This document shows, piece by piece, positions 7,239 to 56,472 of a stretch of DNA of 64,000 bases; position 1 is the first letter of the stretch; every line of letters begins with the position of its first letter. The stretch is from contig NZ_JBIIAW010000003.1 of NCBI RefSeq assembly GCF_044239695.1, positions 5,316 through 69,315 on the forward strand, read 5' to 3'. The notes beneath the pieces were generated by a model that saw nothing but the letters and a program-made list of their open reading frames with translations, made no database searches and was not told where the DNA came from. Origin of the DNA: Pseudolysinimonas sp. GTDB lineage: Bacteria; Actinomycetota; Actinomycetes; Actinomycetales; Microbacteriaceae. The translations under genes and the position numbers were made by a program.

Positions 7239-7546
7239 TGCGCGCCCTCACCTTCCTCTGGCTGCTGCCGCGCAACGTCTGCGTACTGATCCTGCGCGGC
7301 TACCGCGCCGTGATCTCGCCGCTCTACGGCGACGTCTGCCGCTACTACCCGAGCTGCTCCGCCTACGCGCTCGGCTCGATCCAGCAGCATGGCGTGATCA
7401 AGGGCGTGGCCCTCGGTTCCTGGCGACTGCTGCGCTGCCACCCCTGGGCGAGAGGCGGCGTGGATGATGTCCGCGTCGCGTCCGTCCCCCGTTACCGCAT
7501 CACGAACTTCGGCTTCGTCATCCCGGCGAGCTTGGGAAAGGCCTGA
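7235..7546 (+). CDS. yidD: Membrane protein insertion efficiency factor YidD
   Basis: 103 aa with the YidD core ISPLYGDVCRYYPSCSAYA. ATGA overlap with rnpA. Confidence 0.9.
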   Translation: MMRALTFLWLLPRNVCVLILRGYRAVISPLYGDVCRYYPSCSAYALGSIQQHGVIKGVALGSWRLLRCHPWARGGVDDVRVASVPRYRITNFGFVIPASLGKA

Positions 7547-7553
7547 CACCACC

Positions 7554-8543: not shown

Positions 8544-9103
8544 GCGACACCACCGAGACCCCCACCGTCGACGAGGCCGAGGCCGTCGTGGAGAGCGAGG
8601 GCGCGACCGAGGACGCCGCGCAGGGCGAGCTGTCCGAGCAGGACGTCATCGACGAGGGTGACGCCGCCGCCGATTACATCGAGGAACTCCTCGACATCGC
8701 GGACATCGACGGCGACATCGACATCGACGCCCGCGGTGGCCGCGCCTACCTCTCCGTCTCGGCGACCGGTGACTCCAACCTCCGGCTGCTGTCCAAGCCC
8801 GACACCGTCGCGGCGCTGCAGGAGCTCACACGTCTCGCGGTGCAGAACAAGACCAGCCGCTTCTCCCGGCTCATCCTCGACATCGGCGGCTCGCGGGATG
8901 CCCGCGCCACCGAGCTCGCAACGCTCGTCGATCACGCGATCACGCGCCTCGAGGGCGGGGCGGCCACGGCGTCGCTGCCCCCGATGTCGAGCTACGAGCG
9001 GAAGGTCGTGCACGACATCGTGGCGGAACGCGGCTACACCTCGGAGTCCGAGGGCGAGGGCCGCGATCGCCACACGGTGATCACCGCCCGCGCTGGAGCA
9101 TAG
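8540..9103 (+). CDS. jag: Jag/KhpB-type R3H RNA-binding protein
   Basis: 187 aa with an acidic N-terminus and a C-terminal R3H-like ERKVVHDIVAERGYTSESEGEGRDRHTVI. ATGA overlap with yidC. Confidence 0.88.
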   Translation: MSDTTETPTVDEAEAVVESEGATEDAAQGELSEQDVIDEGDAAADYIEELLDIADIDGDIDIDARGGRAYLSVSATGDSNLRLLSKPDTVAALQELTRLAVQNKTSRFSRLILDIGGSRDARATELATLVDHAITRLEGGAATASLPPMSSYERKVVHDIVAERGYTSESEGEGRDRHTVITARAGA

Positions 9104-9168
9104 AGCGAGGCCATTTCCGGCCTCGCCCCAGCGCCCCAGCGCCGACGTGCGTCTGGGGCGTCGGGCAA

Positions 9169-9184
9169 GGTTTCACGTGAAACA
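9169..9184. promoter_or_regulatory. parS centromere site (15/16 match)
   Basis: GGTTTCACGTGAAACA versus the consensus TGTTTCACGTGAAACA, in the jag-rsmG spacer. Confidence 0.85.
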
Positions 9185-9198
9185 TTGGTGGACATGAC

Positions 9199-9825
9199 GT
9201 GATCGTGGAAGACGAGCCTCCGTACGCGGCCGAGCTGTTCGGCGACCGCATCGACGTCGCACGCGCCTTCACCGCGGACCTCGCACGCTTCGGCGAGGAG
9301 CTCGGCCTGATCGGTCCACTCGAGGCCGAGAGGCTGTGGTCGCGACACGTAGTCAACTGCGTGTTGATGGCTCACCTGCTGCGCCCGGGACGTGTCGGCG
9401 ACGTGGGCAGTGGGGCGGGTTTGCCCGGCCTCGTGCTGGCGATCGCTCGTCCCGACGTGGACATGGTGCTCATCGAGCCGATGGAGCGCCGCACCGACTG
9501 GCTCAGCGCCGAGTCCGAACGACTCGGTCTGACCAACGTCACGGTCGCGCGGGGGAGGGCGGAAGAGATCCGACCCGAGCCGCTGCTCGACCAGGTCACC
9601 GCCCGTGCGGTGTCGGCGCTGAGCAAGCTCGTCCCGCTGTGCGCGCCCCTCCTCAAGCCCGGTGGGGAGATGTTGTTCATGAAGGGCGCGCGGGTCCAGG
9701 ATGAGGTCGTCGCGGCGGAGAAGGCTCTTCGCAAGGCTCGCATCCGCGACGCCGAGGTGCTCGTTCTGGGCGAGGGGATCGTGCCCGAGGTCACCCGGGT
9801 CTTTCGGGCTAGTCTGGGTCACTGA
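9199..9825 (+). CDS. rsmG: 16S rRNA (guanine527-N7)-methyltransferase RsmG (GidB)
   Basis: 208 aa with SAM motif DVGSGAGLPGLVLA. Synteny fits. Confidence 0.92.
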   Translation: MIVEDEPPYAAELFGDRIDVARAFTADLARFGEELGLIGPLEAERLWSRHVVNCVLMAHLLRPGRVGDVGSGAGLPGLVLAIARPDVDMVLIEPMERRTDWLSAESERLGLTNVTVARGRAEEIRPEPLLDQVTARAVSALSKLVPLCAPLLKPGGEMLFMKGARVQDEVVAAEKALRKARIRDAEVLVLGEGIVPEVTRVFRASLGH

Positions 9826-15078: not shown

Positions 15079-16080
15079 TCAGGCGGAGATGATCGCGGGG
15101 TCCGGCACCGGCGCAGCGGGCTCGCGCGGGTCGCCGCCGGCCGCCACGAGGAGGTCGTTCGGCAGGTCGGCGAGGTAGTGCTCCGCGTCGAGCGCCGCGA
15201 CCGTGCCCGAACCCGCCGCGGTGATCGCCTGCTTGTAGGTCGGGTCGACGACGTCGCCGGCCGCGAAGACGCCGGGGATGTTGGTGCGCGACGATCGGCC
15301 CTCGACGGCGATCGTGCCGGCCTCGGTGAGGTCGAGCTGGCCGTGGATGAGGTGGGTGCGCGGGTCGGAGCCGATCGCGACGAACATGCCCTGCACGTCG
15401 AGCGTGGTCTCGGTGCCGGTCTCGGTGTCGACGATGCCGATGCCGGTGACCTTCTCGTCGCCGTAGACGTGCGCGACCTCCTGGTTCCAGAGCACCTGGA
15501 TCTTGGGATCGGCGAACGCGCGCTCCTGCATCGCGACCGAGGCGCGGAAGGCATCCCGGCGGTGCACGAGGTAGACGGTGTCGGCGAACCGAGTGAGGAA
15601 GGTCGCCTCCTCGAGGGCGGAGTCACCGCCGCCGATGACCGCGACCTTCTTCTGCTTGAAGAACGCCCCGTCGCAGGTGGCGCACCACGAGACGCCGTAG
15701 CCGGAGAGCCGGGTCTCGTCGGCGAGCCCGAGCTTGCGGTACTCCGAGCCCGTCGCGTAGATGACGGCGAGGGCCTCGACCACGGTGCCGTCGCCGAGGT
15801 GGATCTTCTTGACGTCGCCGGCGAGTTCGACCTTCGTCACGTCGTCGTAGACGATCTCGGCGCCGAACCGCTCGGCCTGCGCCTGCATCTTCATCATCAG
15901 GTCGGGACCCATGATGCCGTCGGGGAAGCCCGGGAAGTTCTCGACCTCGGTGGTCTTCATCAGCTCGCCGCCGAACTCCACGCTCGAGGCGATCACGAGG
16001 GGCTTGAGGTTCGCGCGCGCGGCGTAGATCGCGGCGGTGTACCCCGCCGGTCCTGAGCCGATGATCACGATCTGACGCAT
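15079..16080 (-). CDS. trxB: Thioredoxin-disulfide reductase
   Basis: This is the C-terminal 333 aa of a 762-aa shadow-extended ORF, starting at ATG 16080 (MRQIVIIGSGPAGYTAAIYA). Redox motif is WCATCDG. Confidence 0.95.
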   Translation of the reverse strand: MRQIVIIGSGPAGYTAAIYAARANLKPLVIASSVEFGGELMKTTEVENFPGFPDGIMGPDLMMKMQAQAERFGAEIVYDDVTKVELAGDVKKIHLGDGTVVEALAVIYATGSEYRKLGLADETRLSGYGVSWCATCDGAFFKQKKVAVIGGGDSALEEATFLTRFADTVYLVHRRDAFRASVAMQERAFADPKIQVLWNQEVAHVYGDEKVTGIGIVDTETGTETTLDVQGMFVAIGSDPRTHLIHGQLDLTEAGTIAVEGRSSRTNIPGVFAAGDVVDPTYKQAITAAGSGTVAALDAEHYLADLPNDLLVAAGGDPREPAAPVPDPAIISA

Positions 16081-16166: not shown

Positions 16167-17777
16167 TCAGTTTCGTCTGATGAAAGACACGGTGCCGCGC
16201 AGCTCCGGCGCGCGCGTCACGGCGAGCACGAGAAGGAAGACGAGGATGCCGACCACGCCGACCGCCGCCGTCGTGACGATCCCCTCCAGACGTCCCGCGG
16301 TCGCGAACCCGCCCGGGGCGAACCCGCCGAGCAGGGCCAGCACGCCGACCGCCGCTGCGGCCGCGGGGATCGTCGCGAGGGCGAAGATCCCGAAGCGCCG
16401 CACGATGCGACGCCCTCCGCCGCCGAGCCGCCGACGGAGGATGACGGCGCCGGCGAGGGCCTGCACGATGACGGAGAGGGAGGTGACCAGGCCGATGCCC
16501 GCCGCGATCCATGCCGACGGCGCGGCGAGGAGGGCGAGCGTGCCGGCGATGAAGAGTGCGGCCTGCACGACCTGGAGCAGGAACGGGGTGCGGGTGTCGC
16601 CGAGGGCGTAGAACGCGCGCTGCACGACGTAGAGGCTGCTGAACGGCACCAGACCGACGAGGAAGCCGAGGAGCACGATCGCGATCACCCGCGCCTCCTC
16701 GTCGCCGTCGGCGAAGAACCGCGCGAACGGCACCGCTGCCGCCGCGAGCGCGGCACCGGCTCCGGCCACCAGCATCCCGATCGCCCGCAGCGACGCGGAG
16801 AGGTCCGCGCGCAGGGCCGGGATGTCGGCATCCCGCACGGCTGCGGCCATCCGGGTGAAGTAGGGCGTCGCGATCGAGATCGCGATGATCGAGTGCGACA
16901 GCATGAAGATCAGCCAGGTGACCCGGAGCACGGCGAGCGAGGCATCGTCGGGGTTGGCGGTCGAGGCGACGTTGGTCTGCACCAGGTTGGTGAGCTGCAC
17001 GACGAGCACCATGCCGACGACCCAGCCGGCCGCCCGCGCGGGGGCTCCCAGCCCGGCCCCTCGCCAGCGGAAGTCGGGTCGGAACCGCAGGCCGGTCCGA
17101 CGCCAGAAGAACAGCAGCAGGATCGCCTGGAGCGCCACGCCGAGCGTCGCGCCGCCCCCGAGCACCGCGATGCGGTCCGGACTCCACTCCGCTGCCGCGT
17201 CGTGCGCCGGCACGACGCCGTACAGCGCGGCGAACAGCGCGAGGGTTCCGATCATCACGACGTTGTTGAGGGCCGGAGCCCACGCCGCCGGTCCGTAGAT
17301 GCCGCGGGCATTGAGCACCTCGCCGACGAGGGCGTAGACGGCGTAGAAGAAGATCTGAGGGAGGCACCAGTAGGCCAGCGACACCGCCAGCTCGAGGCCG
17401 CCTCCGGCCAGGGCTCCTTCTCGGCTGGCCAGGGCGTAGAGCCGCACGATCAGCGGCGCCGCGAAGGTGGCGGCGATCGTCGTGACCAGGAAGGCGGCGA
17501 CGCCGAGGGTCACCAGCCGGTTGACGAACGCCTGCCCGCCGTCGGCCTGCGTGGCCGCCTTGACGATGTGCGGCACGAGCACCGCCTGCAGCAGGCCCCC
17601 GGCGACGATGGCGTAGATGTAGGTCGGCAGTTGATTGGCGAGGGCGAAGGCGTTCGGTCCCGGCTGGGTGACGCCGATCACGGCGGCGAGCACCGCCGCG
17701 TTGGCGAAGCCGAGGAGGCGCGACAGGATCGTGCCGGACGCGAGAGCGGCACTCGCGCGTCCGACGGTCGCGCTCAC
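16167..17777 (-). CDS. murJ: Lipid II flippase MurJ (MviN)
   Basis: Internal GTG at 17777 (VSATVGRASAALASGTILSRLLGF) forms a GTGA overlap with the upstream gene stop. 536 aa, polytopic. Confidence 0.88.
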   Translation of the reverse strand: MSATVGRASAALASGTILSRLLGFANAAVLAAVIGVTQPGPNAFALANQLPTYIYAIVAGGLLQAVLVPHIVKAATQADGGQAFVNRLVTLGVAAFLVTTIAATFAAPLIVRLYALASREGALAGGGLELAVSLAYWCLPQIFFYAVYALVGEVLNARGIYGPAAWAPALNNVVMIGTLALFAALYGVVPAHDAAAEWSPDRIAVLGGGATLGVALQAILLLFFWRRTGLRFRPDFRWRGAGLGAPARAAGWVVGMVLVVQLTNLVQTNVASTANPDDASLAVLRVTWLIFMLSHSIIAISIATPYFTRMAAAVRDADIPALRADLSASLRAIGMLVAGAGAALAAAAVPFARFFADGDEEARVIAIVLLGFLVGLVPFSSLYVVQRAFYALGDTRTPFLLQVVQAALFIAGTLALLAAPSAWIAAGIGLVTSLSVIVQALAGAVILRRRLGGGGRRIVRRFGIFALATIPAAAAAVGVLALLGGFAPGGFATAGRLEGIVTTAAVGVVGILVFLLVLAVTRAPELRGTVSFIRRN

Positions 17778-19492
17778 TCGGTCTCCTGCGATCCGCCCGG
17801 CTCGGTGGCCGCCCGCTCGGCGACGGCCCGGCGGCGGCGCACGACGACGTTGCGGACGATCCCGACGGCGAAGACGATCGCCAGGACGGCGAAGACGATG
17901 AGTCCGACCGTCTCCCACTGCGCCTGCAAGTCGGCGTCGAAGCGCCGGGACTGCCCGATCGGGGTGCCGGTCGAGGGGCTCGAGAGGCTCACGTCGACCA
18001 CCACGCGGCCGTTGGTGATCGCCTGCGCATCGAGGCGGACCGTCTTCGACGATCCCGGTTCGATCGTCACCTCGGCCGGGCTGTCGATCTGCAGCAGCGG
18101 ACGCAACGGGCGGGCATCCAGTCGCACGGTGACGGCGAAGTCGAGCGCATTCGCGATGCGGATCGGGATCGAGGTGCTGGTGCTCGCGACGAACAGGCTG
18201 CCCGTGTCGACGATCTCCACCGACCCCAGGATTTCGGCGGACCGCTCGAGGAACACGTCGGCCTGCGCCTGCCATTCCGGATCGGCGACCTCCTGCACGC
18301 TCAGGAGCGCCAGCAGCTGCAGGCGCCGAGGAGCGGTGAGGAGCAGAGGATCGCTCAGGATGCTGGCGAACAGGTCCTCCGCCTGCAGCACGGCGGTGAG
18401 GCCCGGGGTAGCCAGCACGTGTGCGCCTGCGGCGCCGTCGACCACGGACGCCGGGTCGGCGGGGCCCGACAGCACGTCGGAGAGCCCGACCATCCGCGTC
18501 GTCTCGCGGGCCTCGATCGCACCGAACGCCTCGTCGAGTCCGTAGAACTTGAACGTCGACAGCCGGTCGAGGGTGAGCACGACGGAGCGACCCGGATGAG
18601 CGGCCCCGAGTCCGTCGAGCGCCGCGCCCAGGCGGGTGAGCGCCTGCTCCCGCGTCGCGTCGTCGATCGAGGTGCTCGCCTCGCGCAGCAGCTCGGAGGC
18701 GGCGGAGTCGGCGACGAGCCCCCGAATCTCGCCGAGATCGGCGAGGGCGCCGCCCGTCTCGGAGAGGTTGCCGGAGTTCAGCAGAACCGCCTCGTAGCCG
18801 GCGGCATCGTAGGCGGCGAGGTCGGCCGCCGCGGCGGAACCGGAGGCCGGCCAGGCGATCGCGGGGAGCGCGGCGGGCCAGGCGAGCAGCTCCTCGGTGC
18901 TCGGGAGCGGTGGCGGGTCCCCGGCACCCGCGTCGGCGGTCTCGGTCGGGGTCGGCGTCGGGGTCGGCGTCGGGGTCGCGGTCAGCTCCGGTCCGAAGTT
19001 CGCCGGGTCGATGGCGAACCCGAAGTCGAGGGCGGTCGCGAGGTCGAGCGACCCGTTCCGGGCCAGCGCCGTCAGGTCGGCGTCGGCGTAGCCGAGCAGG
19101 AAGACCTCGTTCGGCGCCGCGGCGAGCCGGTCGAGCCAGGCGAGTGCGGTGGGCGGAGCCGTCGAGCCCAGCACCCGGATCGAGGCGAGGATCATCGGAT
19201 CGAGCGCGATCGTCGCCGAGGTCGCCAGCAGCTCGTCGAGTTCCCGGGTGAGGGTTCCCGACGGGGAGGTGGCGGTCTCGAGCGTCTCGGCGCCGAGCAT
19301 CCCGTCGTCTCCGGCGCGGAGCGTGATCGGAACCACCACGCTGATCTCGATCGGGGCGGACACGGCCCGCGGTGCGGCGAGGGCCGGGCCGGAGATGATC
19401 GCGGGGGCCAGAACGACGGCGAACGCGAGGGCCGCGGCTGCCGCGCGGTGACGCGCGGGCAGGGCGCGTCCCTGCTCTCGCGCGGCCGACAT
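17774..19492 (-). CDS. Conserved actinobacterial exported/anchored protein upstream of murJ (Rv3909-like; DUF6049 by recollection)
   Basis: Start chosen at ATG 19492 (MSAAREQGRALPARH...), giving 572 aa. It has a signal-like N-terminus, a (TP)n linker and a C-terminal TM helix. The longer 683-aa ORF would overlap cca. Confidence 0.8.
   Translation of the reverse strand: MSAAREQGRALPARHRAAAAALAFAVVLAPAIISGPALAAPRAVSAPIEISVVVPITLRAGDDGMLGAETLETATSPSGTLTRELDELLATSATIALDPMILASIRVLGSTAPPTALAWLDRLAAAPNEVFLLGYADADLTALARNGSLDLATALDFGFAIDPANFGPELTATPTPTPTPTPTETADAGAGDPPPLPSTEELLAWPAALPAIAWPASGSAAAADLAAYDAAGYEAVLLNSGNLSETGGALADLGEIRGLVADSAASELLREASTSIDDATREQALTRLGAALDGLGAAHPGRSVVLTLDRLSTFKFYGLDEAFGAIEARETTRMVGLSDVLSGPADPASVVDGAAGAHVLATPGLTAVLQAEDLFASILSDPLLLTAPRRLQLLALLSVQEVADPEWQAQADVFLERSAEILGSVEIVDTGSLFVASTSTSIPIRIANALDFAVTVRLDARPLRPLLQIDSPAEVTIEPGSSKTVRLDAQAITNGRVVVDVSLSSPSTGTPIGQSRRFDADLQAQWETVGLIVFAVLAIVFAVGIVRNVVVRRRRAVAERAATEPGGSQETE
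18945..18980 (-). repeat. Coding 12-nt tandem repeat (about 3 copies) encoding a Thr-Pro linker
   Basis: GTCGGGGTCGGC x3 on the plus strand encodes TPTPTPTPTPT in the minus-strand CDS. Confidence 0.8.
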
Positions 19493-46977: not shown

Positions 46978-47137
46978 TCGTATCCCTCCTCTCCGACTAA
47001 CCGCGGATGCGGCAATCGAAGGATAGATCGGGCGTCCGACAAGACTCCGGACGTTCGCTTCTTGGCTCGCAAACGTGACGTCATGGATCGGTGGTCGTTG
47101 CGTCAGCCCCAACCTCGACTACCACCCCAAAACACGA

Positions 47138-47167
47138 CAGCCGCACCCACAAACGCGGGTGCGGCTG
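47138..47167 (-). terminator. Orphaned intrinsic terminator of the original tRNA-Gly 3' end
   Basis: CAGCCGCACCC-8 nt-GGGTGCGGCTG, an 11-bp stem. On the minus strand it is followed by TCGTGTTTTGGGG. It lies 28 nt downstream of the displaced tRNA 3' half. Confidence 0.6.
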
Positions 47168-47194
47168 TCAACGATGTCCTGAGACATCACATGG

Positions 47195-47236
47195 GAGCGG
47201 ATGACGGGAATCGAACCCGCGCTATCAGCTTGGGAA
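47195..47236. repeat. att direct repeat (displaced 3' half of tRNA-Gly)
   Basis: GAGCGGATGACGGGAATCGAACCCGCGCTATCAGCTTGGGAA is identical to 56401-56442. The flanking bases differ on both sides. Confidence 0.95.
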
Positions 47237-47355
47237 AACGACGCCGACCCTTTCTCTGTCAGTCGAGATCGCGGGTGAAGCCCGCTATCTCGGTGAAGTG
47301 ACCTTAACAGTCGATGCCGGTTAGCGACAGTTCGCGACACGTTGCGACGGACCAG

Positions 47356-47376
47356 GAGTCCACGTCGCGTCCACGA
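47356..47376. promoter_or_regulatory. GTCCACG doublet (candidate integrase arm-type site), copy 1
   Basis: GAGTCCACGTCGCGTCCACGA. A near-identical GAGTCCACGTGCGTCCACGA lies at 56308-56327 in the same orientation. Each is about 75-140 nt inside an att repeat. Confidence 0.5.
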
Positions 47377-47435
47377 GATTGACCGCTGTCGTCGGGCGCC
47401 GTTACCTTGCGAGCGACGCGACGAGAGGGCGACGA

Positions 47436-48911
47436 ATGACCGCTGCACCCGCTGACCCCCGGCTCGACCCGGCCGCTGCGCAACGCACCGAGGACGTCTG
47501 GGCGACCGCGCTCGACGAGCACCGCGGATACCTCGCTCAGGTCGACGGCCTTGCCGAGTCGACGGTGACGGTGCGAATGCGGATGCTCAGCGCGATGGCG
47601 CGGAGCATCGGGCTCGGGCCGTGGGCCCTCTCGGACGAGGCCTTTTCGCTGTGGCTCGATCAGCGCGGGCTCGCTCGAGAAAGTCAGCGAACCTACCGCA
47701 AGGTCTCCCGCGGGTTCTATCGGTGGGCTGTGGCGGTCGGCTACATCGAGCGGCAGCCCCTCGCCGACCGACCAACGCGAGTTCGCCGAGCGCCCGAAGG
47801 TGCTTGGAGCGCCGGGTTGGAGGAGTGGGAGGTGCACGAGTCTCGGGTCGGCGCGAGCCCCGAGTACGTCCGGACTCGGGCAAAGCATCTCCGTCGCTTC
47901 GCCGACGAATGCGGTGTCGCCTCGCCCTGGAACGTCGAGCCGGCGCACGTGCATGGGTGGCTCGCTCGACTCAACGTGAGCGGCAGTACCGTCGCCGCGG
48001 CGCGGAACGCGCTGCGATCCTTCTACCGTTGGGCCTGCCACGACGGCCGGATCGAGCACGATCCTACGGACGAACCCTCTCGTCGAGCGAGCACCCGGTT
48101 CGCGCCCGAACGGTGGGAGGTCGAGATCTCGGCTTGGCGTCGCGCGATGCTCGCCGAGTCGAAGCCCTCGACGACGCTCATGCTGCGCGTGCAGCACCTT
48201 CGCCGCTTCGCGCGCGAGAACAGCCACCTCGCGCCGTTCGAGCCGACCACCGACGAACTGCTCGACTGGCTATCTCACAAGCGTTGGAGTCCCGAAACGC
48301 GGCGCTCGGTGCGCGGGTCACTGCGCGGGTTCTATCGCTGGGCGAAGCAGAGCGGCCGCGTGGCGAAGAATCCCGCGGCGAAACTGCCGGCCGTGAAGGC
48401 ACCGCTCTCGCACGCACGTCCCGCGGCCGACGCCGACTACCGGGCTGCCCTGGCGAAGGCGGACCGCTCCGAGCGGATGGCGTTGCGGCTGGCCGCCGAA
48501 CTCGGGCTGCGACGCGCCGAGGTCGCCGTGGTCCACACCTCCGACCTGCGACACACCGAGACCGGAATGCTCATCCTCGTCCACGGCAAGGGTCGCCGCG
48601 ATCGGGTGCTCCCGGTGCCGCAGTCCCTCGCAGACTCGCTCCGCGCGGTGACCCCCGGGTTCGTGTTCCCCGGGAAGATCGACGGGCACATTTCCCCGCA
48701 GTACCTGAGCAAGCGACTCGGGGCGCTGCTGCCGCCCGGGGTGAGCATGCACATGCTTCGACACCGCTTCGCGACTAACGCCTACGCCGTCGATCGCGAC
48801 GTGCTTACGGTCCAGCGTCTGCTCGGCCACTCTTCGCCGGCCACGACTCAGCGGTACGTCGCGGTGACCGATGATCGCATGCGCGAACTCGTGGAGGCGA
48901 TCGCATCGTGA
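47436..48911 (+). CDS. Tyrosine recombinase with three tandem core-binding (SAM-like) domains
   Basis: Start at ATG 47436 (track 47379). There are three repeats of about 90 aa, each ending in FYRWA(V/C/K). The single catalytic domain has R (GLRRAEV), K (HGKGRRDR), HxxR (HMLRHRF), H (LGHSS) and Y (TQRYV). Confidence 0.85.
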   Translation: MTAAPADPRLDPAAAQRTEDVWATALDEHRGYLAQVDGLAESTVTVRMRMLSAMARSIGLGPWALSDEAFSLWLDQRGLARESQRTYRKVSRGFYRWAVAVGYIERQPLADRPTRVRRAPEGAWSAGLEEWEVHESRVGASPEYVRTRAKHLRRFADECGVASPWNVEPAHVHGWLARLNVSGSTVAAARNALRSFYRWACHDGRIEHDPTDEPSRRASTRFAPERWEVEISAWRRAMLAESKPSTTLMLRVQHLRRFARENSHLAPFEPTTDELLDWLSHKRWSPETRRSVRGSLRGFYRWAKQSGRVAKNPAAKLPAVKAPLSHARPAADADYRAALAKADRSERMALRLAAELGLRRAEVAVVHTSDLRHTETGMLILVHGKGRRDRVLPVPQSLADSLRAVTPGFVFPGKIDGHISPQYLSKRLGALLPPGVSMHMLRHRFATNAYAVDRDVLTVQRLLGHSSPATTQRYVAVTDDRMRELVEAIAS

Positions 48912-49195
48912 CGCTGAACTTCGACTGCCCGGTCGCCTGGTGTAGCGGCTACCGTCCCGAGCACGGCGACGAGGGCGACGGGCCGCAGAAGTGGCTACAC
49001 ACGTCGGAGCACGAGGACATCGCCGAACTCGCGATCGGGGTGTTCTTCAGAGAGGGGATCGGGCCGACCACCTTCGCCGTGAGCATCACCACCACGGAAC
49101 TCGGCGGGAGCGCGGAGCAACTCCGTGCGGACGCCAAGAGGCTGCGCACGCTCGCCGCGGTCATGGAAGCGCGAGCGGGCTCGGTCGAGCAGTAG
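48908..49195 (+). CDS. Hypothetical protein with N-terminal C-P-x-x-W-C motif
   Basis: 95 aa, GTGA-coupled to the recombinase. Begins MTLNFDCPVAWCSGYRPEHGDEGDG. Confidence 0.55.
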   Translation: MTLNFDCPVAWCSGYRPEHGDEGDGPQKWLHTSEHEDIAELAIGVFFREGIGPTTFAVSITTTELGGSAEQLRADAKRLRTLAAVMEARAGSVEQ

Positions 49196-49431: not shown

Positions 49432-49481
49432 AAAAAGATCGGGGCTAGGGCGAGTGTGAGCAGTGCTCTGTCGCCCTAGCC
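49432..49481 (-). terminator. Hairpin plus T-tract (intrinsic terminator on the minus strand)
   Basis: GGCTAGGGCGA...TCGCCCTAGCC (11-bp stem at 49443-49481 with an inner GAGCA/TGCTC stem). On the minus strand it is followed by CCGATCTTTTTG. Confidence 0.55.
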
Positions 49482-49500
49482 GCGTGCGCTTCGCTGGGAC

Positions 49501-49547
49501 GCGGGAACATCGGTAACGATCATCGGTCACATCGGTGACTCGGTCAC
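49501..49547. repeat. Repeat array A: GCGGGAAC + 4 x (A)TCGGTNAC
   Basis: GCGGGAAC 49501-49508, ATCGGTAAC 49509-49517, ATCGGTCAC 49522-49530, ATCGGTGAC 49531-49539, TCGGTCAC 49540-49547. Confidence 0.85.
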
Positions 49548-49653
49548 AAGCGCCATGTCTACCCGGCTGCCCGCGTGCCCGCTGTGCTCGTTGTCGAGGA
49601 GCGCGCACGCCGGACACCTCCACCAGAACCCAGGAAGTACCGTGGTGGCGCAC

Positions 49654-49705: not shown

Positions 49706-51106
49706 TCAGAGGACTTCCTGCCCGTAACGGGTGAAGAGTTTCGCCCGGATGTTCACAGGGTTGCGGCGGAAATACTCCTGGGCCGTCGAGTGATACGCGG
49801 CCGCATCTGCGGAGGGATTGAAGGTGACCCTCGGCGCGGGGACGGTCGATGCGCCGAGGGCGGCGCCGATCTCCGTGACGTAGGTGCCCGAGTTCTGCTT
49901 GCCGGCCTCGCTCCAGAATCGATCGAGTTCGGCACGCTGGGAAGTCGAAGCGCTCTGGTAGCCCGCGAGCATCGTGGCTGCCGCCTCCACACCCTGCTCG
50001 TTGAGGAACGCCTTCGCCTCGGCGCTGAGACCCGCGGTCGCAAGCGTCGCCTGGTAGTCGCGCAGAGCGGTCTCCCTCTCCTGCATCGCGGCAAGATACG
50101 CCGACACGTCGAACAGACCGGTCTCGGCGTCGATGAAGCCCTGCGTGCTGCCCGCCGCCTCGTCGTAGGCGGTGTTCACCGCCTTGATCAGCGCGACCTT
50201 GCCCTCGATCTCTGAGACCCCGGACGAGTAGTACAACTCCTGCATCTGGGTCGCCTCGCTGATCGCGTCGCGTTGCGCCCGCAGAAGCCCGAGTTCGTGC
50301 TCCAGGTCGGCGGCGCGGTTGCTCGCCTCCGTTGAGGCGAACTCGTTGTTGCCCTGCAACTCCAGGGCGCGGATGCGCTCGGCCGCTGCGAGTGCTTCTG
50401 TCTTGTCGATGAGGTCGTCGAGCGGTTCACCGCCTCCGGCGTACGCGTTAACGACGTCCTCGAAGTTCGATTCGAGATCGGCGGCGAGGCCGCTGAGCCG
50501 CTCCAGGTTCGCCTTGCTGTCATCGGTCTCTGTGGCGAGTCCGCGTACTTCATCCGCGATCCCGGAGAACGCGCGGCCCGCGATCGCGCCGGTGTCGATG
50601 AACTCGCTGGTGAGTTCCGCGACCTTGGCGCGGAACTCTTCGGAGTCCTCTTCCGCGCCAGTGATCGCGGCCGCGATCGTGCCGATAGTCGCCGCGGCTG
50701 CGACCGCGACGGGCACGAGCGCCGGGTTGACTTGCGCGAGGCCTGCGACCAGACCGCCGAACGTGCCCTGCACGCCGTCGACGAACGACGACACCGAGCC
50801 GTCGAACGACGAGAACGTCTCGGATGCGTTGGACAGCGCTTCGGCCTTGACTTCGCGCATCGACGCCGACGCTTTCGTGGCGCCGCGGTCGAGCCCGTCC
50901 GCGAGGTTCTGCCCGGCCTTGTTGCCGTCGCGCTCAGCCGCGCGGGCGAGATCCCGGAACGAACCTTCGAGCCGCTCTGTCGACTGATCGCCGTCGCGCG
51001 CAGCGTCGTCGAGCGCGTCGGCGACCTGGTCGAGCGCGCCGGCCACGTCCTTGATTCCGGCTTGTGCATCGCGAGTGTTCGCAGCGATGTCGAGACTGAG
51101 TGCCAT
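49706..51106 (-). CDS. Coiled-coil protein with central hydrophobic segment (tape-measure-like?)
   Basis: Start at ATG 51106, overlapping the upstream stop by 1 nt (TGATG). 466 aa, Ala/Glu/Asp-rich and helical. The hydrophobic core is GGLVAGLAQVNPALVPVAVAAAATIGTIAAAITGA. Confidence 0.65.
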   Translation of the reverse strand: MALSLDIAANTRDAQAGIKDVAGALDQVADALDDAARDGDQSTERLEGSFRDLARAAERDGNKAGQNLADGLDRGATKASASMREVKAEALSNASETFSSFDGSVSSFVDGVQGTFGGLVAGLAQVNPALVPVAVAAAATIGTIAAAITGAEEDSEEFRAKVAELTSEFIDTGAIAGRAFSGIADEVRGLATETDDSKANLERLSGLAADLESNFEDVVNAYAGGGEPLDDLIDKTEALAAAERIRALELQGNNEFASTEASNRAADLEHELGLLRAQRDAISEATQMQELYYSSGVSEIEGKVALIKAVNTAYDEAAGSTQGFIDAETGLFDVSAYLAAMQERETALRDYQATLATAGLSAEAKAFLNEQGVEAAATMLAGYQSASTSQRAELDRFWSEAGKQNSGTYVTEIGAALGASTVPAPRVTFNPSADAAAYHSTAQEYFRRNPVNIRAKLFTRYGQEVL

Positions 51107-51867
51107 CAGCGCGCCTCCATCCCGAGAGCCCGGGCGACGACCACGCGGCGAGTCTCGCCGTCCCGAGTTCGCTCGACCCGAACGGCTTCGGCGTAGATCT
51201 CGGCAGCGACGAGGTGACACTTCGCGCAGGCGAGGAGTGTCGGCACAGGAAGGCCGCGGGGGGTGAGTGTCGAGGGTGAGACCCAGTTCACGACTTCGAC
51301 GGGGGCGAGGGGGCGCGCCATGGGAGCACCTGCCTCGACCGCGCCGCAGACGGGACAGGTGTAGACGCTGCGCGCTGCCTCTTCGGCGCGGACTCGCTTC
51401 GCGTGCCGCTCGGCGTGGTGCTTGACGTGCGCGGCCGTGATCGTGAAGCGCGCCATTGACTCGTACCGGGTCGGCTCCTGCTCGAGGAGGTCGTCGACGA
51501 GGCGATCGATCGAGTCGCCCGCCCAGAGCGGTCGGGCGTACGGCCCGAGGAGCGCATCGGTGAGCGCGAACCCCGACAGAGGCTCGTCTTGCTCCTCGTC
51601 GGCAGAGGAGTCGGTAAGCGGCCGATGAGACCGCGTGCCGGCTCGCGCGGCTTCTCGGGCGCGCTCATCCTCTCGGCGTTCCGCGCGGTGCTTTGCGCTG
51701 AGCTCAAGGACCGCGATGTTCTGAGACACCGCGCGGGGGATTCGGCCGGGGGCGGTCGCTGAATGCTCCGTCCACGCGGCCCGGTGGCTTTCCGGGATGA
51801 AGTAGAACGACGCCTGGTCGTCGAAGCCCTCGGGCAGGGGATCGACGGTGCTGGGCTTGAGGCTCAT
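51106..51867 (-). CDS. Hypothetical protein with CxxC...CxxC zinc-ribbon-like motif
   Basis: Start at ATG 51867 (the track TTG at 51882 is possible). Motifs are CPVCG and CAKCH, about 45 aa apart. Confidence 0.55.
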   Translation of the reverse strand: MSLKPSTVDPLPEGFDDQASFYFIPESHRAAWTEHSATAPGRIPRAVSQNIAVLELSAKHRAERREDERAREAARAGTRSHRPLTDSSADEEQDEPLSGFALTDALLGPYARPLWAGDSIDRLVDDLLEQEPTRYESMARFTITAAHVKHHAERHAKRVRAEEAARSVYTCPVCGAVEAGAPMARPLAPVEVVNWVSPSTLTPRGLPVPTLLACAKCHLVAAEIYAEAVRVERTRDGETRRVVVARALGMEAR

Positions 51868-51925
51868 GGTGATGACGTCCAATCGAATTACAGGGTTGCG
51901 CGCAGATCCGCTGCACGCGCCGGGG

Positions 51926-53104
51926 CTAGAACGGCTCGTCCTCGTCGAATAGCGTCGAGGCCGGCGGTGGTGCCTCGTCCGTCTCGGGCTCCGCGGGCAG
52001 GTACCGCTCCCAGGCGTCGGCGAGGTGGTGGCGGGCGTAGCCCTTGGCAGTGCCGAGGGAGCCGAAGCGAATCGTGTTGTTCGTCGGGACGCCGTACTTC
52101 GAGAGTTGCCGGGCGATGAACCGGCTGTCGATCGGGGTGCCCTTGATGCTCGCCCAAGGCGCGGTCTCCATCGAGACCAGCGCGTCGAGGATGACCGTCG
52201 TGCGGAGCGCCTCCTCGCCCTCTGCGTCGAACACGGCGCGGAGGTCCGCGAGGAGCCGGATGCCGAGCGTGGCGGGGCGGTGGCTCTGCTCGTCGACCAT
52301 CGCGACGGCGGCGGCGCGGAGTCGGGTCGGCCACTCGCCGCCCGCGGCGTCCGCGATCGCGATGAGGGGCTCCCAGACGTCGGCGTTGCGGTCGACGATC
52401 GTCAACGGCAACTCGGGCCACACACCTTCCACGAGCGGCCGCGCGCTCAGGGCCCAGCGCTCCAAGTCGGCGCGGAGAATCGCCGCATCGGCCTCCGTGG
52501 CTCGGCGGCGGTAGGGCTCGATCTGCTCGCTCGGGCTGCGGCGCCGCATCGCGATGACGATCGACCGCGTCATCAGGGTGTCGGGCAGGCTGTTGAGCCC
52601 TGCCATAGCGACTGGCGCGAACGAGGACCATTCTTCGGTCACCACCTCTTTGCCGCGCACGCTCGCGCGGCCGACGACGGCGCCCTTGCGGTAGCCGCTG
52701 TTGAGCAGTCCACGGATCTCTTCGGTCGATTCGCTTGGTCGGTTGGTGAAGATCGAGTCGACCTCGTCGAACAGCAGTGTCGGGAGCGGTACCTCGTCTT
52801 CGACCGAGAGGCGTCGGAACAGGTAGGAGACCGTGGCGTTGACGGTGAGCACGGCGTCGGGCACGAGCGGCTCGGTGACCTCCAAGGCGCGGGACTTGCC
52901 GCTCCCCGGCTCAGGCGACAGGAACGCCAGGCGGGGGGAGTTGTCGAAGCAGCGCGCCAGGTGGGTGTGCGCGATCCACACGGTGTGCGCGACCCGGGCG
53001 TGCTCGGATGGGTACGCGACGAACCGTCGCAGGAATGCCTCGATGCTGTCGAGGACGTCGGCTCCGGCCGGAGCGGCTGGAGCCTTGGGCGGGCGGGGTG
53101 TCAC
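51926..53104 (-). CDS. DUF3631-type P-loop ATPase (PrimPol-associated replication protein)
   Basis: 392 aa. Walker A is EPGSGKSRALE and Walker B is LLFDEVD. GTGA overlap with PrimPol. Family recalled from typical PrimPol-DUF3631 pairs. Confidence 0.75.
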   Translation of the reverse strand: MTPRPPKAPAAPAGADVLDSIEAFLRRFVAYPSEHARVAHTVWIAHTHLARCFDNSPRLAFLSPEPGSGKSRALEVTEPLVPDAVLTVNATVSYLFRRLSVEDEVPLPTLLFDEVDSIFTNRPSESTEEIRGLLNSGYRKGAVVGRASVRGKEVVTEEWSSFAPVAMAGLNSLPDTLMTRSIVIAMRRRSPSEQIEPYRRRATEADAAILRADLERWALSARPLVEGVWPELPLTIVDRNADVWEPLIAIADAAGGEWPTRLRAAAVAMVDEQSHRPATLGIRLLADLRAVFDAEGEEALRTTVILDALVSMETAPWASIKGTPIDSRFIARQLSKYGVPTNNTIRFGSLGTAKGYARHHLADAWERYLPAEPETDEAPPPASTLFDEDEPF

Positions 53105-53847
53105 GAGGACGTGGCTCCGTAACGTCGGCGGGCGGAGGCGATGGTCTTCGCGATCTCGCTGTCGGTGAGACCGACGACCGAAGCCGCGGCCTCCAGGAGG
53201 TCAAAGGCGTCGGAGGAAAGGCCGGCTTCTGCGGCGCGGCACGCTGCCCAGAACAGCGCGGCGTTGCGGTTGCCCTCGGTCCTCGTTGACACGAACTCGG
53301 CGAGGTGCAGCGCTTTGCGCTCAGTCCGGCCCGCGGGGGCCGCCCGCTTGGGCGGCTCGACGGGACGCAATAGGGCGACCACCGACGCCGGGAGCGGGAC
53401 GGGCGGCCGCGACGCCCACGTGTACGGCTTGCCGGTCGACGGGTGGAGGCTTGGGGGCATGACGCAGTAGCCGCGGTCGGTCTTGACGTCGATCCCGGTT
53501 GGGAGGCGGGTGGCGCTCAGCGAGCCTGGGGGGCGACGGTAGTAGCGGTGTTGCCCTCCCGTGCCACGGCCGCTGTGAACGGTGAGGGTCTCGGGGAGGG
53601 GCTCACCCGTCGCCGCTTCGAGGTCGGCGACGGTGCCGCCGTTCTGCGGGTCGAAGTCGAGGACGACGAGCGTGGCCGGTACGCGAGCGCCGACGTTGTG
53701 CGCTTGCGTCGACCACCACCCGCGAATGGTCCGCTCGTCGGTGGTGGCGTCCTTGACGCCGTGCTGCGTGAGCGGCACTTTTCCGCGAAGCGGCAGGATC
53801 TCCCAGCCCGCATTAGCGAGGGCGAGGGCCTGGTCGAGGTCAGGCAT
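53101..53847 (-). CDS. Bifunctional DNA primase/polymerase (PrimPol, AEP family) N-terminal domain protein
   Basis: Contains the LVVLDFD acidic motif and TVHSGRGTGGQHRYY. Start at ATG 53847 (the track start at 53886 is possible). Confidence 0.8.
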   Translation of the reverse strand: MPDLDQALALANAGWEILPLRGKVPLTQHGVKDATTDERTIRGWWSTQAHNVGARVPATLVVLDFDPQNGGTVADLEAATGEPLPETLTVHSGRGTGGQHRYYRRPPGSLSATRLPTGIDVKTDRGYCVMPPSLHPSTGKPYTWASRPPVPLPASVVALLRPVEPPKRAAPAGRTERKALHLAEFVSTRTEGNRNAALFWAACRAAEAGLSSDAFDLLEAAASVVGLTDSEIAKTIASARRRYGATSS

Positions 53848-54109
53848 CGTCGGATCCCAGCGCGCGGCGCGTGCGGATGCGGTCATCGCGGCTCGCCTGC
53901 GAGTACTCGCCCGGGTTGGCGAGCCTCTGCCGCAGTCGAGCGGCTTCAGACGTCAGTGCAGCGCGGGAGGGTGATTCGGCCGGCTCGACGAGGGCCTTCC
54001 GTTCAAGGGCCGCGAGGCGGGCTACGAGCGGGGCCGCGGCTTCGGCGCGGGTGGGGCCGGGGGCGTGCGAGGCGAAGAGCGCCGCGCCCTCGTCGTCGTG
54101 CGCGGTCAC
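53840..54109 (-). CDS. Hypothetical protein
   Basis: 89 aa from GTG 54109 (GTGA overlap with the upstream stop). Ala/Arg-rich and helical. Weak call. Confidence 0.4.
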   Translation of the reverse strand: MTAHDDEGAALFASHAPGPTRAEAAAPLVARLAALERKALVEPAESPSRAALTSEAARLRQRLANPGEYSQASRDDRIRTRRALGSDDA

Positions 54110-54339
54110 GGCTGACCCATCCAGGGTGCGAGTCGTCCCCGATCGCGAAGGCACGCGATCGCCTGCCGGGTCTCGCGTCGGCTGGGCATGAGGTAGACCG
54201 GGAGGGTCCGGGCGAATTCGTCGAGCGCGAGCCGGAAGTCGCGCGAGCCGGGGTTGGCGCACACCTCTCTCGGCACGACGTTCTGAGCGTGCTCGACGAA
54301 CTGGGCTGCGAGAGGCAGTCGCTGCTCGGTCGCGGTCAT
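54106..54339 (-). CDS. Hypothetical protein
   Basis: 77 aa. ATGA overlap with the Xis-like gene. Confidence 0.45.
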   Translation of the reverse strand: MTATEQRLPLAAQFVEHAQNVVPREVCANPGSRDFRLALDEFARTLPVYLMPSRRETRQAIACLRDRGRLAPWMGQP

Positions 54340-54539
54340 CGGTTCGCGGCGACGGGGCGCATGTGCGCCTCGATGTACTCGTCGACGGCGGACTCGGGGA
54401 CTCGGACCGAGCGACCGACCTTGACGGTGCGGAGGGCTCGACCTTGGGTGAGCGTGCGCGCTTGGCGCGGCGTGATGCTCAGCACCTCGGCGAGCTCGGC
54501 GGGCGTGTAGAGGCGTTCGCGGGATGGTGAAGACGTCAC
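54336..54539 (-). CDS. Excisionase/AlpA-type helix-turn-helix DNA-binding protein
   Basis: 67 aa. GTG start with AGGAG 7 nt upstream. HTH is YTPAELAEVLSITPRQARTL...GRSVRVPESAVDEYI. Confidence 0.75.
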   Translation of the reverse strand: MTSSPSRERLYTPAELAEVLSITPRQARTLTQGRALRTVKVGRSVRVPESAVDEYIEAHMRPVAANR

Positions 54540-54874: not shown

Positions 54875-54921
54875 GTTCCCGCTGTTACCGATGTGACCGC
54901 ACGGTGTGACCGCTGTTACCG
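54875..54921. repeat. Repeat array B: GTTCCCGC + 4 x GTNACCG (inverted relative to array A)
   Basis: GTTCCCGC 54875-54882, GTTACCGAT 54884-54892, GTGACCG 54893-54899, GTGACCG 54906-54912, GTTACCG 54915-54921. The last copy overlaps the int stop codon. Confidence 0.85.
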
Positions 54922-56283
54922 CTCTGCGGGGTGAGACAGGAGGGGTACGCTCGGCGCGCCCGCACCGAAGAGCGCGTCGATCCGGTCGGCGAGCGAGCGG
55001 TCGGCGCCCTCGGCGAGGTGAGCGTAGATCGCCGCGGCACGCATGGTCGAGTGCCCGAGTCGTGCCTGCACCTCGGGGACGCTCGCGCCCGCACGGTAAG
55101 CGAGAGTCGCCCCGGTGTGTCGGAGGTCGTGCCAGGTGAGTTCGGGTCGGTCGATCGCGGCTCGCGCCCTGCGGAACAGGAACGAGACTCGGGCGTTCGT
55201 GACCGGCGCGCCGTCGATCGCGAACAGTAGCGCCTCGGGGTCGGCCGCGACGTAGGTATCGAGGTGGTCGACCAGGGCAGCGTGCACGAACCCGGGGAGG
55301 TGCACGACGCGTCGGCTGCGCTCGGTCTTCGGGGGGCCGAAGCGGATCGGTTCGCCAGGGACGCAGACCAGTGCTCTCTCGACGCTCACCGTTCCTGCCG
55401 CGACGTCGACGTGGCGCCGGGCGAGCGCGAAGAGTTCGCCGTAGCGCAGGCTCGACCAGGCTGCGATCGTCACCGCGGCTGCGAGCGGCCCCGGCATCGT
55501 CGCTGCGATCGCGCGGACCTCGGCGGGGCTCGCCGTCGCACGTTCGCGGTGGCGGACCGCTCCGGCGTTCGGGATCTGGCAGGGGTTGGTCGCGATCAGC
55601 CCGTCGTGCAGGGCCGTGCCCATTACGGTCCTGAGCACTCGGTAGGCGTGCGCGGCGGCGGTGCGGCCGGCTGCATCCGGGACGACGTCAGGCGCGCCTG
55701 CGAGCGTCGACGTCGGCGACCCCGCTGAACGCCACGCGCTGAGGACTGCGGGGCTGAGGCGCCCGGTAGCCGCTGCGGCCAAGCCGCGCTCTCGTGCCCA
55801 CTCTCGGGCAGGGTGCGCGCGCCGCGCCGCATCACGGCGCAGGCGCGCCTCGGCCGCGGTGCGGGTCGCTGCGAACACGGCGGCGTACCAGGTGCGTACG
55901 ACAGCGGGTGTGACGTCCGCGACCCGCATCCGCCCGAGGTCGATGATGCGGCCGCGCGAGGTGGTGACCGGGGCGAGCACGCGTCGTTGAAGGGTCCGTC
56001 GATACAGGTCGACGGTGCGGGGTGCGAGGTCGGGGCGGGACTCCAGCCAGTCGCCGATGTACGCCCCGAGGGTGACGTCGCCGAGCCGGGGGTCCTGCCA
56101 CGTGCCGCGTGACCGGTCGGCCCGCTCCTGCGCGAGCCACCCCTGCGCGGCGGCTTTGGTGTCGAAGGTGTGCGGTGCGCCGTAGCGCGATCCGTCGACG
56201 CGGTAGAAAGCGCGGTACCGGCCAGAGGGGAGCAGTTCTACGGTTCCCCAGCCGCCCGGGGTCTTGCGGGGTTTGCGACTCAT
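54916..56283 (-). CDS. int: Tyrosine integrase with N-terminal arm-type (AP2-like) DNA-binding domain
   Basis: Start at ATG 56283 (MSRKPRKTPGGWGTVELLPSGRYRAFYRVDG...). Catalytic residues are LRYGEL (R), HDLRHTG (HxxR), LGHST (H) and AIYAH (Y). It lies adjacent to the tRNA. Confidence 0.9.
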   Translation of the reverse strand: MSRKPRKTPGGWGTVELLPSGRYRAFYRVDGSRYGAPHTFDTKAAAQGWLAQERADRSRGTWQDPRLGDVTLGAYIGDWLESRPDLAPRTVDLYRRTLQRRVLAPVTTSRGRIIDLGRMRVADVTPAVVRTWYAAVFAATRTAAEARLRRDAARRAHPAREWARERGLAAAATGRLSPAVLSAWRSAGSPTSTLAGAPDVVPDAAGRTAAAHAYRVLRTVMGTALHDGLIATNPCQIPNAGAVRHRERATASPAEVRAIAATMPGPLAAAVTIAAWSSLRYGELFALARRHVDVAAGTVSVERALVCVPGEPIRFGPPKTERSRRVVHLPGFVHAALVDHLDTYVAADPEALLFAIDGAPVTNARVSFLFRRARAAIDRPELTWHDLRHTGATLAYRAGASVPEVQARLGHSTMRAAAIYAHLAEGADRSLADRIDALFGAGAPSVPLLSHPAER

Positions 56284-56307
56284 CACGAGCCTCTCTCGTA
56301 GGCACGT

Positions 56308-56327
56308 GAGTCCACGTGCGTCCACGA
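56308..56327. promoter_or_regulatory. GTCCACG doublet (candidate arm-type site), copy 2
   Basis: GAGTCCACGTGCGTCCACGA, 25-45 nt upstream of the int start and 74 nt from the att repeat. Confidence 0.5.
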
Positions 56328-56400: not shown

Positions 56401-56442
56401 GAGCGGATGACGGGAATCGAACCCGCGCTATCAGCTTGGGAA
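56401..56442. repeat. att direct repeat inside the intact tRNA-Gly
   Basis: Identical 42-mer to 47195-47236. Covers the tRNA from the anticodon loop to the 3' end. Confidence 0.95.
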
Positions 56443-56472
56443 GCTGAAGTTCTGCCATTGAACTACATCCGC
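56402..56472 (-). tRNA. tRNA-Gly (anticodon CCC)
   Basis: Hand-folded 71-nt cloverleaf. Acceptor GCGGATG/CATCCGC, D stem GTTC/GAAC, anticodon stem TCAGC/GCTGA with loop TTCCCAA, T arm GCGGG-TTCGATT-CCCGT, discriminator T. No encoded CCA. Confidence 0.92.

Follow-up and report, generated by a model that had tools for sequence, protein, structure and literature searches.

A tyrosine recombinase with three tandem core-binding domains in a tRNA-Gly island of Pseudolysinimonas sp.

Architecture of the recombinase and its host island

The window analysed in this study, meaning the whole 64,000-nucleotide stretch of Pseudolysinimonas sp. DNA (contig NZ_JBIIAW010000003.1, positions 5,316 to 69,315), has a G+C content of about 70% and carries on its forward strand, at 47436–48911, a gene for a tyrosine recombinase (YR) with multiple core-binding (CB) domains. 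The longest open reading frame (ORF) overlapping these coordinates spans 47379–48911 (+). It can be read as 491 amino acids (aa) from the ATG at 47436 or as 510 aa from an alternative TTG start at 47379. The ATG is the likelier start, because it agrees with the NCBI annotation, is immediately preceded by a Shine-Dalgarno-like GAGAGGG motif, and marks the point after which codon-position GC bias begins. The 57 nt from TTG to ATG (47379–47435) have GC fractions of 0.68/0.68/0.68 at the three codon positions and thus no bias, whereas bias is seen in all three repeats described below and in the catalytic part, with third-position GC (GC3) of 0.77–0.86. The 491-aa product is a 100% match to NCBI protein P0001 of Pseudolysinimonas sp., which is labelled "tyrosine-type recombinase/integrase" and nothing more specific.

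The usual description of a tyrosine recombinase is a CB plus a catalytic domain, to which an arm-binding domain may be added. The ORF at 47379–48911 encodes a catalytically complete "simple" YR, Brujita/Xer-like and without an arm-binding domain, in which the CB is triplicated in tandem. With the boundaries taken from hidden Markov models and numbered in the 510-aa frame, the N-terminal CB1 occupies 47490–47783 (aa 38–135), the middle CB2 47796–48086 (aa 140–237) and the catalytic-proximal CB3 48108–48398 (aa 243–340), followed by a catalytic domain at 48459–48872 (aa 361–498). Each CB is a four-helix domain of about 97 aa, and the repeat period is about 102 aa. The original prediction, made from the letters of the sequence without database searches, had claimed three repeats with this period, and they are borne out by several kinds of comparison. 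Pairwise BLASTP between repeats gives identities of 30–34% with E values of 1e-11 to 7e-15. The profiles of CB1, CB2 and CB3, built from alignments of 63 three-copy proteins, match each other in hhalign with probabilities of 99.8–99.9% and E values of 1e-30 to 1e-36. Each repeat also has its own Pfam matches, Phage_int_SAM_5 in CB1 (aa 87–128), SAM_4/SAM_1 in CB2 (169–221) and Phage_int_M in CB3 (290–336).

The AlphaFold2 model (mean predicted local distance difference test score, pLDDT, 87.6) contains the three four-helix bundles that had been anticipated, H12–101, H123–202 and H225–305 (491-aa numbering), with a single catalytic domain after them. Its predicted TM-score (pTM) of 0.45 means that the domain folds are confident while the mutual placement of the domains is not fixed. 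The single catalytic domain retains the full R-K-H-R-H-Y set, as claimed, and none of R359, K385, H439, R442, H465 and Y474 varies among 20 aligned three-copy homologues. Conservation decreases toward the N-terminus: the mean pairwise identity is about 57% for the catalytic domain, 42.9% for CB3, 37.1% for CB2 and 28.6% for CB1, the least conserved. Across genera, CB1 and CB2 nevertheless retain the signature W...R...LRxFYRWA...G..P. CB3 is the copy that aligns with the sole CB of the matching phage integrases. The concern that the true start might lie far downstream, leaving one repeat, can be dismissed, as all three repeats are translated from either start. The identity and architecture of the protein are therefore regarded as secure.

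The protein scores 63 bits against Pfam PF00589 (Phage_integrase; cut-off 27.1). It stays well below the cut-offs of the NCBIfam Xer models (TIGR02224, 112.7 bits against 335; TIGR02225, 94.2 against 329.6) and of the integron integrase model (TIGR02249, 49.8 against 265), and is classed neither as XerC or XerD nor as an integron integrase. An arm-binding domain was found neither by Pfam nor in the AlphaFold2 model. The N-terminus is itself a CB repeat, and the protein lacks the heterobivalent form of lambda-type integrases; the matches to lambda Int structures have aligned lengths near that of its core-binding plus catalytic fragment (residues 75–356). The best structural match in the PDB is the Brujita integrase (5vfz; Foldseek E 2.4e-13), followed by XerA, XerH, IntI, the lambda Int core and Cre. 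Brujita-type simple integrases also lack an arm-binding domain and come from the same host phylum, and phage integrases of this general type are 40–44% identical to the window protein over CB3 and the catalytic domain. The Brujita integrase has one CB and drives both integration and excision of its phage (PMC8138268). Measured against its published definition of a CB and a catalytic domain only, the window protein agrees in having no arm-binding domain and exceeds it by two CBs. It differs further in lying within a non-phage island of 9.2 kb beside a separate conventional integrase, and is not, like IntBrujita, the integrase of a temperate mycobacteriophage.

This 9.2-kb island is integrated in the 3′ end of a tRNA-Gly(CCC) gene. 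The intact tRNA gene lies at 56401–56472 on the minus strand, and its 3′ 42 nt (56401–56442) are repeated with 100% identity at 47195–47236, where the island ends on the side of the multi-CB gene. No third, degenerate copy of this attachment (att) repeat, which would mean two tandem elements, turned up when as many as 3 mismatches were allowed. The third-position GC of the island is 0.82–0.90, compared with about 0.93 in the flanks. Adjoining the tRNA is a conventional 469-aa tyrosine integrase, here called YR2 (54916–56325, minus strand), which has no matches to the CB repeats. The two recombinase genes thus sit at the two island ends, 6 kb apart on opposite strands, which confirms the prediction that the flagged gene lies at the tRNA-distal end alongside a conventional integrase.

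A 95-aa gene of the island at 48908–49195 (+) overlaps the stop codon of the multi-CB gene and matches Pfam DUF6907 weakly (E 0.22). On the minus strand follow a 504-aa protein with a hydrophobic segment and a weakly tape-measure-like N-terminus (49706–51220; PHROG 1535, Pfam TMP_N below threshold), a protein without assigned family (51106–51882), a DUF3631/RepAM protein (51926–53104), a Prim-Pol protein (53101–53886), a 77-aa ORF without a family match (54106–54339) and a small HTH_17 protein resembling Xis/AlpA (54336–54539). Prim-Pol and RepAM together form a known replication module of actinomycete integrative elements (PMC3218068). No ORF of the island matches an FtsK/SpoIIIE-type transfer (Tra) protein, and the PADLOC defence models found no match. 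Homologues of the 504-aa protein, named F1, recur in islands with an accessory recombinase, and one island whose recombinase has four CBs encodes a PhageMin_Tail protein. Just beyond the distal boundary, a strong terminator-like hairpin of 16 pairs with a T-run (47135–47170, minus strand) probably ends transcription of the flanking host gene. Elsewhere in the window, ARAGORN reports a 96-nt tRNA-Gly(GCC) at 15751–15846; it is probably a false call, because the Rfam tRNA model finds nothing there.

A widespread family in two-recombinase islands

Three CBs in one recombinase are by no means confined to this gene. Among the best 120 matches in a collection of 5.8 billion proteins, 51 have three CB copies (465–533 aa), the other 69 have two (342–416 aa) and none has one. 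Those with a named source are mostly from Microbacteriaceae, with a few from Arthrobacter, Tessaracoccus and Haloactinopolyspora. A profile of the repeat alone, searched against 1.84 billion representative proteins, matched 1,899 of them at E≤0.001. When the homologues and the listed repeat-profile matches are pooled (263 proteins), one CB copy is found in 40, two in 143, three in 70, four in seven, five in two and six in a single protein. The window protein belongs to a large and widespread family whose members, so far found in Actinomycetota, have between one and four CBs. A neighbour-joining tree built from the last CB and the catalytic domain intermingles two-copy with three-copy proteins, which suggests that CBs have been gained or lost repeatedly within the family.

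The four-copy proteins P0125, P0127 and P0128 are rich in Ala and Arg and resemble the high-G+C members of the family; a DUF6907 gene lies upstream of P0125, and the P0127 locus contains an HTH_17 gene. The six-copy protein, P0184, is an 854-aa recombinase (L161, 835–3399) only 22% identical to the window protein. Its Lys/Asn-rich sequence suggests a low-G+C source organism, and it sits between two genes for recombinases of about 280 aa, a trio that resembles RIT elements. Multi-CB forms were absent from the best phage matches: no phage genome record covers 80% or more of the window protein, and the best 30 matches span about 800 bp and include one CB. The plasmid collection yielded no multi-CB member, with only the single-CB part of the protein matched, and in IMG/VR multi-CB forms are rare, almost all matches being single-CB relatives.

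The gene neighbourhoods of the family are also conserved. A scan of 185,579 species genomes yielded 80 loci, and the combination of a multi-CB recombinase with a conventional integrase was found in at least 18 islands from several genera. Ten of them (L001, L003–L006, L008, L010, L012, L017 and L072) repeat the layout of the window, with the multi-CB gene at the distal end reading inward and a YR2 homologue at the tRNA-Gly end. These YR2 homologues are 53–63% identical, lie 6–8 kb downstream on the opposite strand and are usually accompanied by Prim-Pol. The ten islands come from Protaetiibacter, Microbacterium, Leifsonia, Leucobacter, Agrococcus and an unclassified Microbacteriaceae metagenome-assembled genome, and all are bounded by 42–46-nt repeats of tRNA-Gly(CCC or TCC). 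A metagenome locus (L166) has the same layout. In one of the ten (L072, about 17200–19400), a large internal direct duplication of about 150–250 bp lies between the YR2-type match and the tRNA, within a long extra stretch absent from the other islands.

Other multi-CB islands are integrated at tRNA-Lys, Ser, Met, Asn and Arg; there the conventional integrase beside the tRNA is in each case a different, unrelated one. Every delimited island with a two- or three-CB member also has such a separate integrase at this position. The place of the multi-CB gene itself is less uniform. It adjoins an iteron region in most islands, lies mid-island in L002, L007, L009, L027 and L245, is translationally coupled to a replication-type protein gene in the first four of these, and is part of a xis-rep operon in L245 and L246; an operon shared with genes for excision and replication is frequent. 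In three islands of Bifidobacteriaceae (L021, L062, L063) the conventional and accessory recombinase genes overlap in one operon. As a rule, the multi-CB gene has a small DUF6907 gene as its companion: in many islands it is directly adjoined, on one side or the other, by a homologue of the 95-aa gene, and some of these homologues pass the Pfam threshold (28.8 bits against a cut-off of 26 in L003). A homologue search with the 95-aa protein of the window returned only the identical protein, and a full-text literature search found no paper on DUF6907.

Some of the other islands with family members have a satellite-like or defence-island-like flavour, judging by their predicted genes. One (L245) encodes an HTH_3 repressor, an HTH_17 protein, a candidate replication gene recognised by an HTH_36 match only, and Terminase_6; another (L248) encodes AbiJ, ParE/Phd and a PhageMin_Tail protein, and a third (L013) a Fic protein. 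An intergenic stretch of L013 (16048–16318) contains at least nine tandem copies of a unit of about 28 bp, GGCCAGGCTGAGCCTGGGGTGCAG.

A full-text search of open-access papers and bioRxiv found no description of more than two tandem CBs, nor of this actinobacterial family. The suggestion in the original prediction that no family with three CBs had been described holds in the literature searched, yet the architecture itself is common, with all the best 120 matches being multi-CB, and proteins with two CBs have precedents. RitA recombinases of RIT elements "have two sequential CB domains", stated to be "absent in all other YRs" (Smyshlyaev et al. 2021, PMC8138268). Like RitA as described, the window protein is a simple YR with tandem CBs. 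It differs in having three CBs, and its island has two recombinase genes on opposite strands 6 kb apart instead of a co-oriented trio. TnsF is a recombinase-derived protein with a tandem CB1-CB2 (Faure et al. 2023, PMC10293859), which in the Tsy element, where it is active, works with a conventional recombinase and a helix-turn-helix (HTH) protein, both catalytic activities being needed (PMC10293859). The window island resembles Tsy in being an integrative element that encodes a second YR with tandem CBs next to a conventional recombinase and a small HTH protein. TnsF, however, has an N-terminal zinc-finger region and acts as a target selector for comM, whereas the window island targets a tRNA gene; Pfam finds no zinc-finger domain in the window protein, of which CB1 begins at residue 19 of the 491 aa. 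In its gene content the island resembles the pMEA300/SLP1-type actinomycete integrative and conjugative elements (AICEs), which are integrated in tRNA genes and carry a tyrosine integrase, Xis, Prim-Pol and RepAM (DUF3631) (PMC3218068). AICEs are defined by Int, Rep and Tra, and the window island has no FtsK/SpoIIIE Tra match and falls outside this class. A second recombinase with multiple CBs is not among the AICE modules of that survey (PMC3218068).

Pairs of accessory YRs from islands with the same tRNA target are no more similar than pairs from islands with different targets, either in the catalytic domain (57.5 vs 56.2%) or in the CBs (44.6 vs 45.1, 37.2 vs 37.0 and 32.3 vs 32.1%); by this indirect test, a TnsF-like role in target selection is not indicated. 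The distance matrices of the accessory YRs and of YR2 are uncorrelated across 11 islands (Mantel r=0.04, p=0.36), and in L001 and L005 the YR2 proteins are 94% identical while the accessory YRs are 54% identical. L008 and L013, which differ in integrase and target, resemble each other at the nucleotide level over the accessory YR and the beginning of the DUF6907 gene only. Besides L166, a metagenome scan with the conventional integrase as query yielded the loci L165, L171 and L205. The first of these is a complete 8.2-kb tRNA-Gly island (1194–9447) with a YR2-type integrase, Xis and Prim-Pol and without an accessory YR. The other two are tRNA-Gly mini-islands of 1.8 and 2.8 kb that contain little beyond the YR2-type integrase and likewise have no accessory YR. 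The corresponding scan of viral contigs gave only two distant loci and was uninformative. The target comparison, the Mantel test, the module shared by L008 and L013 and the island without an accessory YR argue, on statistical and circumstantial grounds, against an obligate, specific partnership. These comparisons suggest that the multi-CB enzyme may be an independently exchangeable accessory module, and neither the tRNA integrase nor its obligate partner.

Repeats and arrays around the gene

Between the distal 42-nt repeat and the multi-CB gene lie two kinds of short repeats. Three tandem repeats of about 11 bp, GTTAGCGACA, GTTCGCGACAC and GTTGCGACGG, occupy 47320–47350, between the repeat core and a tandem pair, GAGTCCACG / GCGTCCACG, at 47356–47375, just 5′ of the gene. 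The members of this pair share the motif GTCCACG (47358 and 47369) and are spaced 11 bp apart. A second tandem GTCCACG pair in the same orientation is found at the tRNA-proximal end (56308–56326; 56310 and 56320). Tandem short motifs are present at both ends of the other islands as well, and they differ by integrase type: GTCCACG, GTACACG, ATGCAAC, CCCCGCA and others. Paired short motifs near both ends of an element are the classical layout of arm-type sites, and the end motif pairs are putative arm-type sites of the conventional integrase. As they vary with the integrase type, integration and excision at the tRNA are probably carried out by the conventional integrase with Xis.

The repeats of about 11 bp are putative Xis-binding sites. 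From two to four of them occur at the same place in ten related islands, in similar numbers where the recombinase has two CBs and where it has three. They were also considered as binding sites for CB1–CB3 and were rejected in that role, their number being unrelated to the CB number and their location being where Xis sites are expected.

On the other side, 3′ of the multi-CB/DUF6907 pair, an array of ATCGGTNAC repeats is found at 49505–49550, with an inverted copy at 54878–54922. The two arrays flank the whole minus-strand xis/Prim-Pol/RepAM operon, and 49501–49539 is complementary to 54884–54922 in inverted orientation at 74% over 39 nt. The array motif differs with the replication protein of the island. 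RepAM is accompanied by ATCGGTNAC (the window and L003), the AAA protein F2 by ACCCGCAT (L001 and L005), and D5-like primases by GTGAAGCA or CCTGCTAC around an AT-rich centre (L004 and L008). Since the motif tracks the type of replication protein and not the multi-CB recombinase, the simplest reading of the ATCGGTNAC arrays is that they are probably origin iterons or operators, and the two arrays of the window likely serve as origin iterons and promoter operator. A GTGAC-type core recurs more widely among the arrays and may reflect some link to another shared protein. As CB binding sites the downstream arrays were set aside on the same evidence.

Short palindromes 3′ of the gene were also tried as core sites for strand exchange. 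They are located at gene ends and look like terminators, because one precedes a T-run and is conserved beside the integrase stop codon in another island. A hairpin with 14-nt arms at 49440–49484 is followed by a T-run on the minus strand; its flank is similar to L005 11831–11879, which is itself 94% identical to L007 5120–5168, and it looks like a shared terminator element.

Possible roles of the accessory recombinase

The suggestion in the original prediction that the enzyme does something other than integration fits the comparative evidence. As a tentative proposal, which we favour at well below even confidence, the protein may be an accessory site-specific recombinase that acts on the excised, replicating form of the island. 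The conventional integrase and Xis would perform integration and excision at the tRNA, and the multi-CB enzyme would act at a site of its own on the excised circle, either for multimer resolution or for a secondary site-specific exchange. The usual clamp on a core half-site, as in Cre, Xer and the Brujita integrase, would be formed by CB3 with the catalytic domain. CB1 and CB2, which short linkers connect to CB3, would contact DNA that is adjacent or bridged. These additional contacts could stand in for the arm-binding domain or the accessory sites used by other recombinases. In TnpI of Tn4430 and Tn5401, a single YR binds both the core repeats and adjacent accessory repeats (DR1/DR2), which gives selectivity for resolution. 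TnpI uses several single-CB protomers for this purpose, whereas in the window protein the extra binding modules are fused in one polypeptide, and no comparable site was found.

Several observations weigh against such a role. No recombination site could be assigned to the multi-CB enzyme, as the nearby arrays track the replication protein and the downstream palindromes resemble terminators. The islands give no sign of forming multimers or of needing to resolve them, and no multi-CB member was found in the plasmid collection searched, although dedicated resolvases are common on plasmids. DNA binding by CB1 and CB2 is deduced from homology alone, and CB1 is weakly conserved. The independence from the integrase is drawn from sequence statistics and from one island without the gene, possibly a degraded derivative, whereas the overlapping recombinase operon in Bifidobacteriaceae and the Tsy precedent point to cooperation.

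Cooperation is the essence of one alternative, in which the enzyme and the conventional integrase would form a joint machine for integration, as YRec and TnsF do, with the enzyme for instance selecting the target or carrying out one pair of strand exchanges at attP/attB. Tsy needs the catalytic activity of its second, CB1-CB2-containing recombinase in addition to YRec and an HTH protein (PMC10293859), and in the actinobacterial islands a conventional integrase is co-resident in every delimited case, with a Xis-like HTH_17 protein where detected. The two genes not only overlap in L021, L062 and L063, but in the circular form of the window island they would diverge from attP. Nevertheless, no domain of the accessory YR co-varies with the tRNA target, nor does the protein co-vary with the integrase; the module has been swapped between islands with different integrases, the arm-type motifs follow the integrase type, and three islands at the same tRNA-Gly repeat (L165, L171 and L205) have a YR2-type integrase only. 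The window protein also has no TnsF-like zinc-finger N-terminus, and such a joint machine seems unlikely. It is also quite unlikely that the enzyme is a second, self-sufficient integrase of the arm-less Brujita type, in which the extra CBs would take the place of arm binding and through which the island would gain another attachment site. Its closest characterised relatives are indeed the sole integrases of temperate actinobacteriophages, and in many islands the gene adjoins the island end and reads inward. However, in no delimited locus is a multi-CB member the sole recombinase at the island boundary, its position varies to the extent of being mid-island in five islands, and multi-CB forms are essentially absent from phage genomes and rare in IMG/VR.

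Two further alternatives were considered. Action on foreign DNA such as a helper phage or cassettes, for cargo capture or interference and not for island maintenance, is improbable in our judgement. Variable cargo of the defence type does lie directly 3′ of the gene (Fic in L013, AbiJ with ParE/Phd in L248), the gene set of L245 with its repressor, Xis, candidate replication gene and Terminase_6 is satellite-like, and phages of the same hosts have integrases homologous to the catalytic part. Yet cargo often lies beside an integrase gene for trivial reasons, neither cassette-like repeats nor attC-like sites were observed, and the PADLOC models gave no match. The original prediction had also named inversion, and the arrays at 49.5 and 54.9 kb, being inverted, partly complementary and on either side of a whole operon, have the arrangement expected for an invertase or a regulatory switch. 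Since the array motif tracks the replication-protein type, being the same in L003, which also has RepAM, and different with other replication proteins, it gives no support to such a switch. The two corresponding sites in L072 are in direct orientation, and the repeat number does not follow the CB number. A function in inversion is thus highly improbable.

An accessory recombinase on the replicating form remains the reading that we prefer. A broader and more doubtful reading is that the tandem CBs constitute a modular DNA-reading head, variable from one to six copies that have been gained and lost repeatedly, with a separate segment of an extended asymmetric site recognised by each unit. Beside arm-binding domains and accessory proteins, tyrosine recombinases would then have a third route to long-range site recognition and control of the synapse, and the family would mark an undescribed class of two-recombinase replicative islands in Actinomycetota.

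Our study shows that the CB of a tyrosine recombinase can be multiplied, from one to six copies, with gains or losses scattered through the family tree. Provided that every copy does read DNA, multiplication of the domain would offer a natural way of lengthening recombination sites and raising their specificity, a prospect of interest to designers of recombinases. The architecture is common, and in the literature searched it has not been characterised as a family. It departs clearly from the textbook plan of these enzymes and is widespread, its genomic surroundings are conserved, and what the second enzyme does is directly testable. Beyond its protein product, the gene points to a kind of island that recurs in Microbacteriaceae and their relatives and has so far gone undescribed. 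Such islands are small, integrated in tRNA genes, able to replicate and equipped with two unrelated recombinases.

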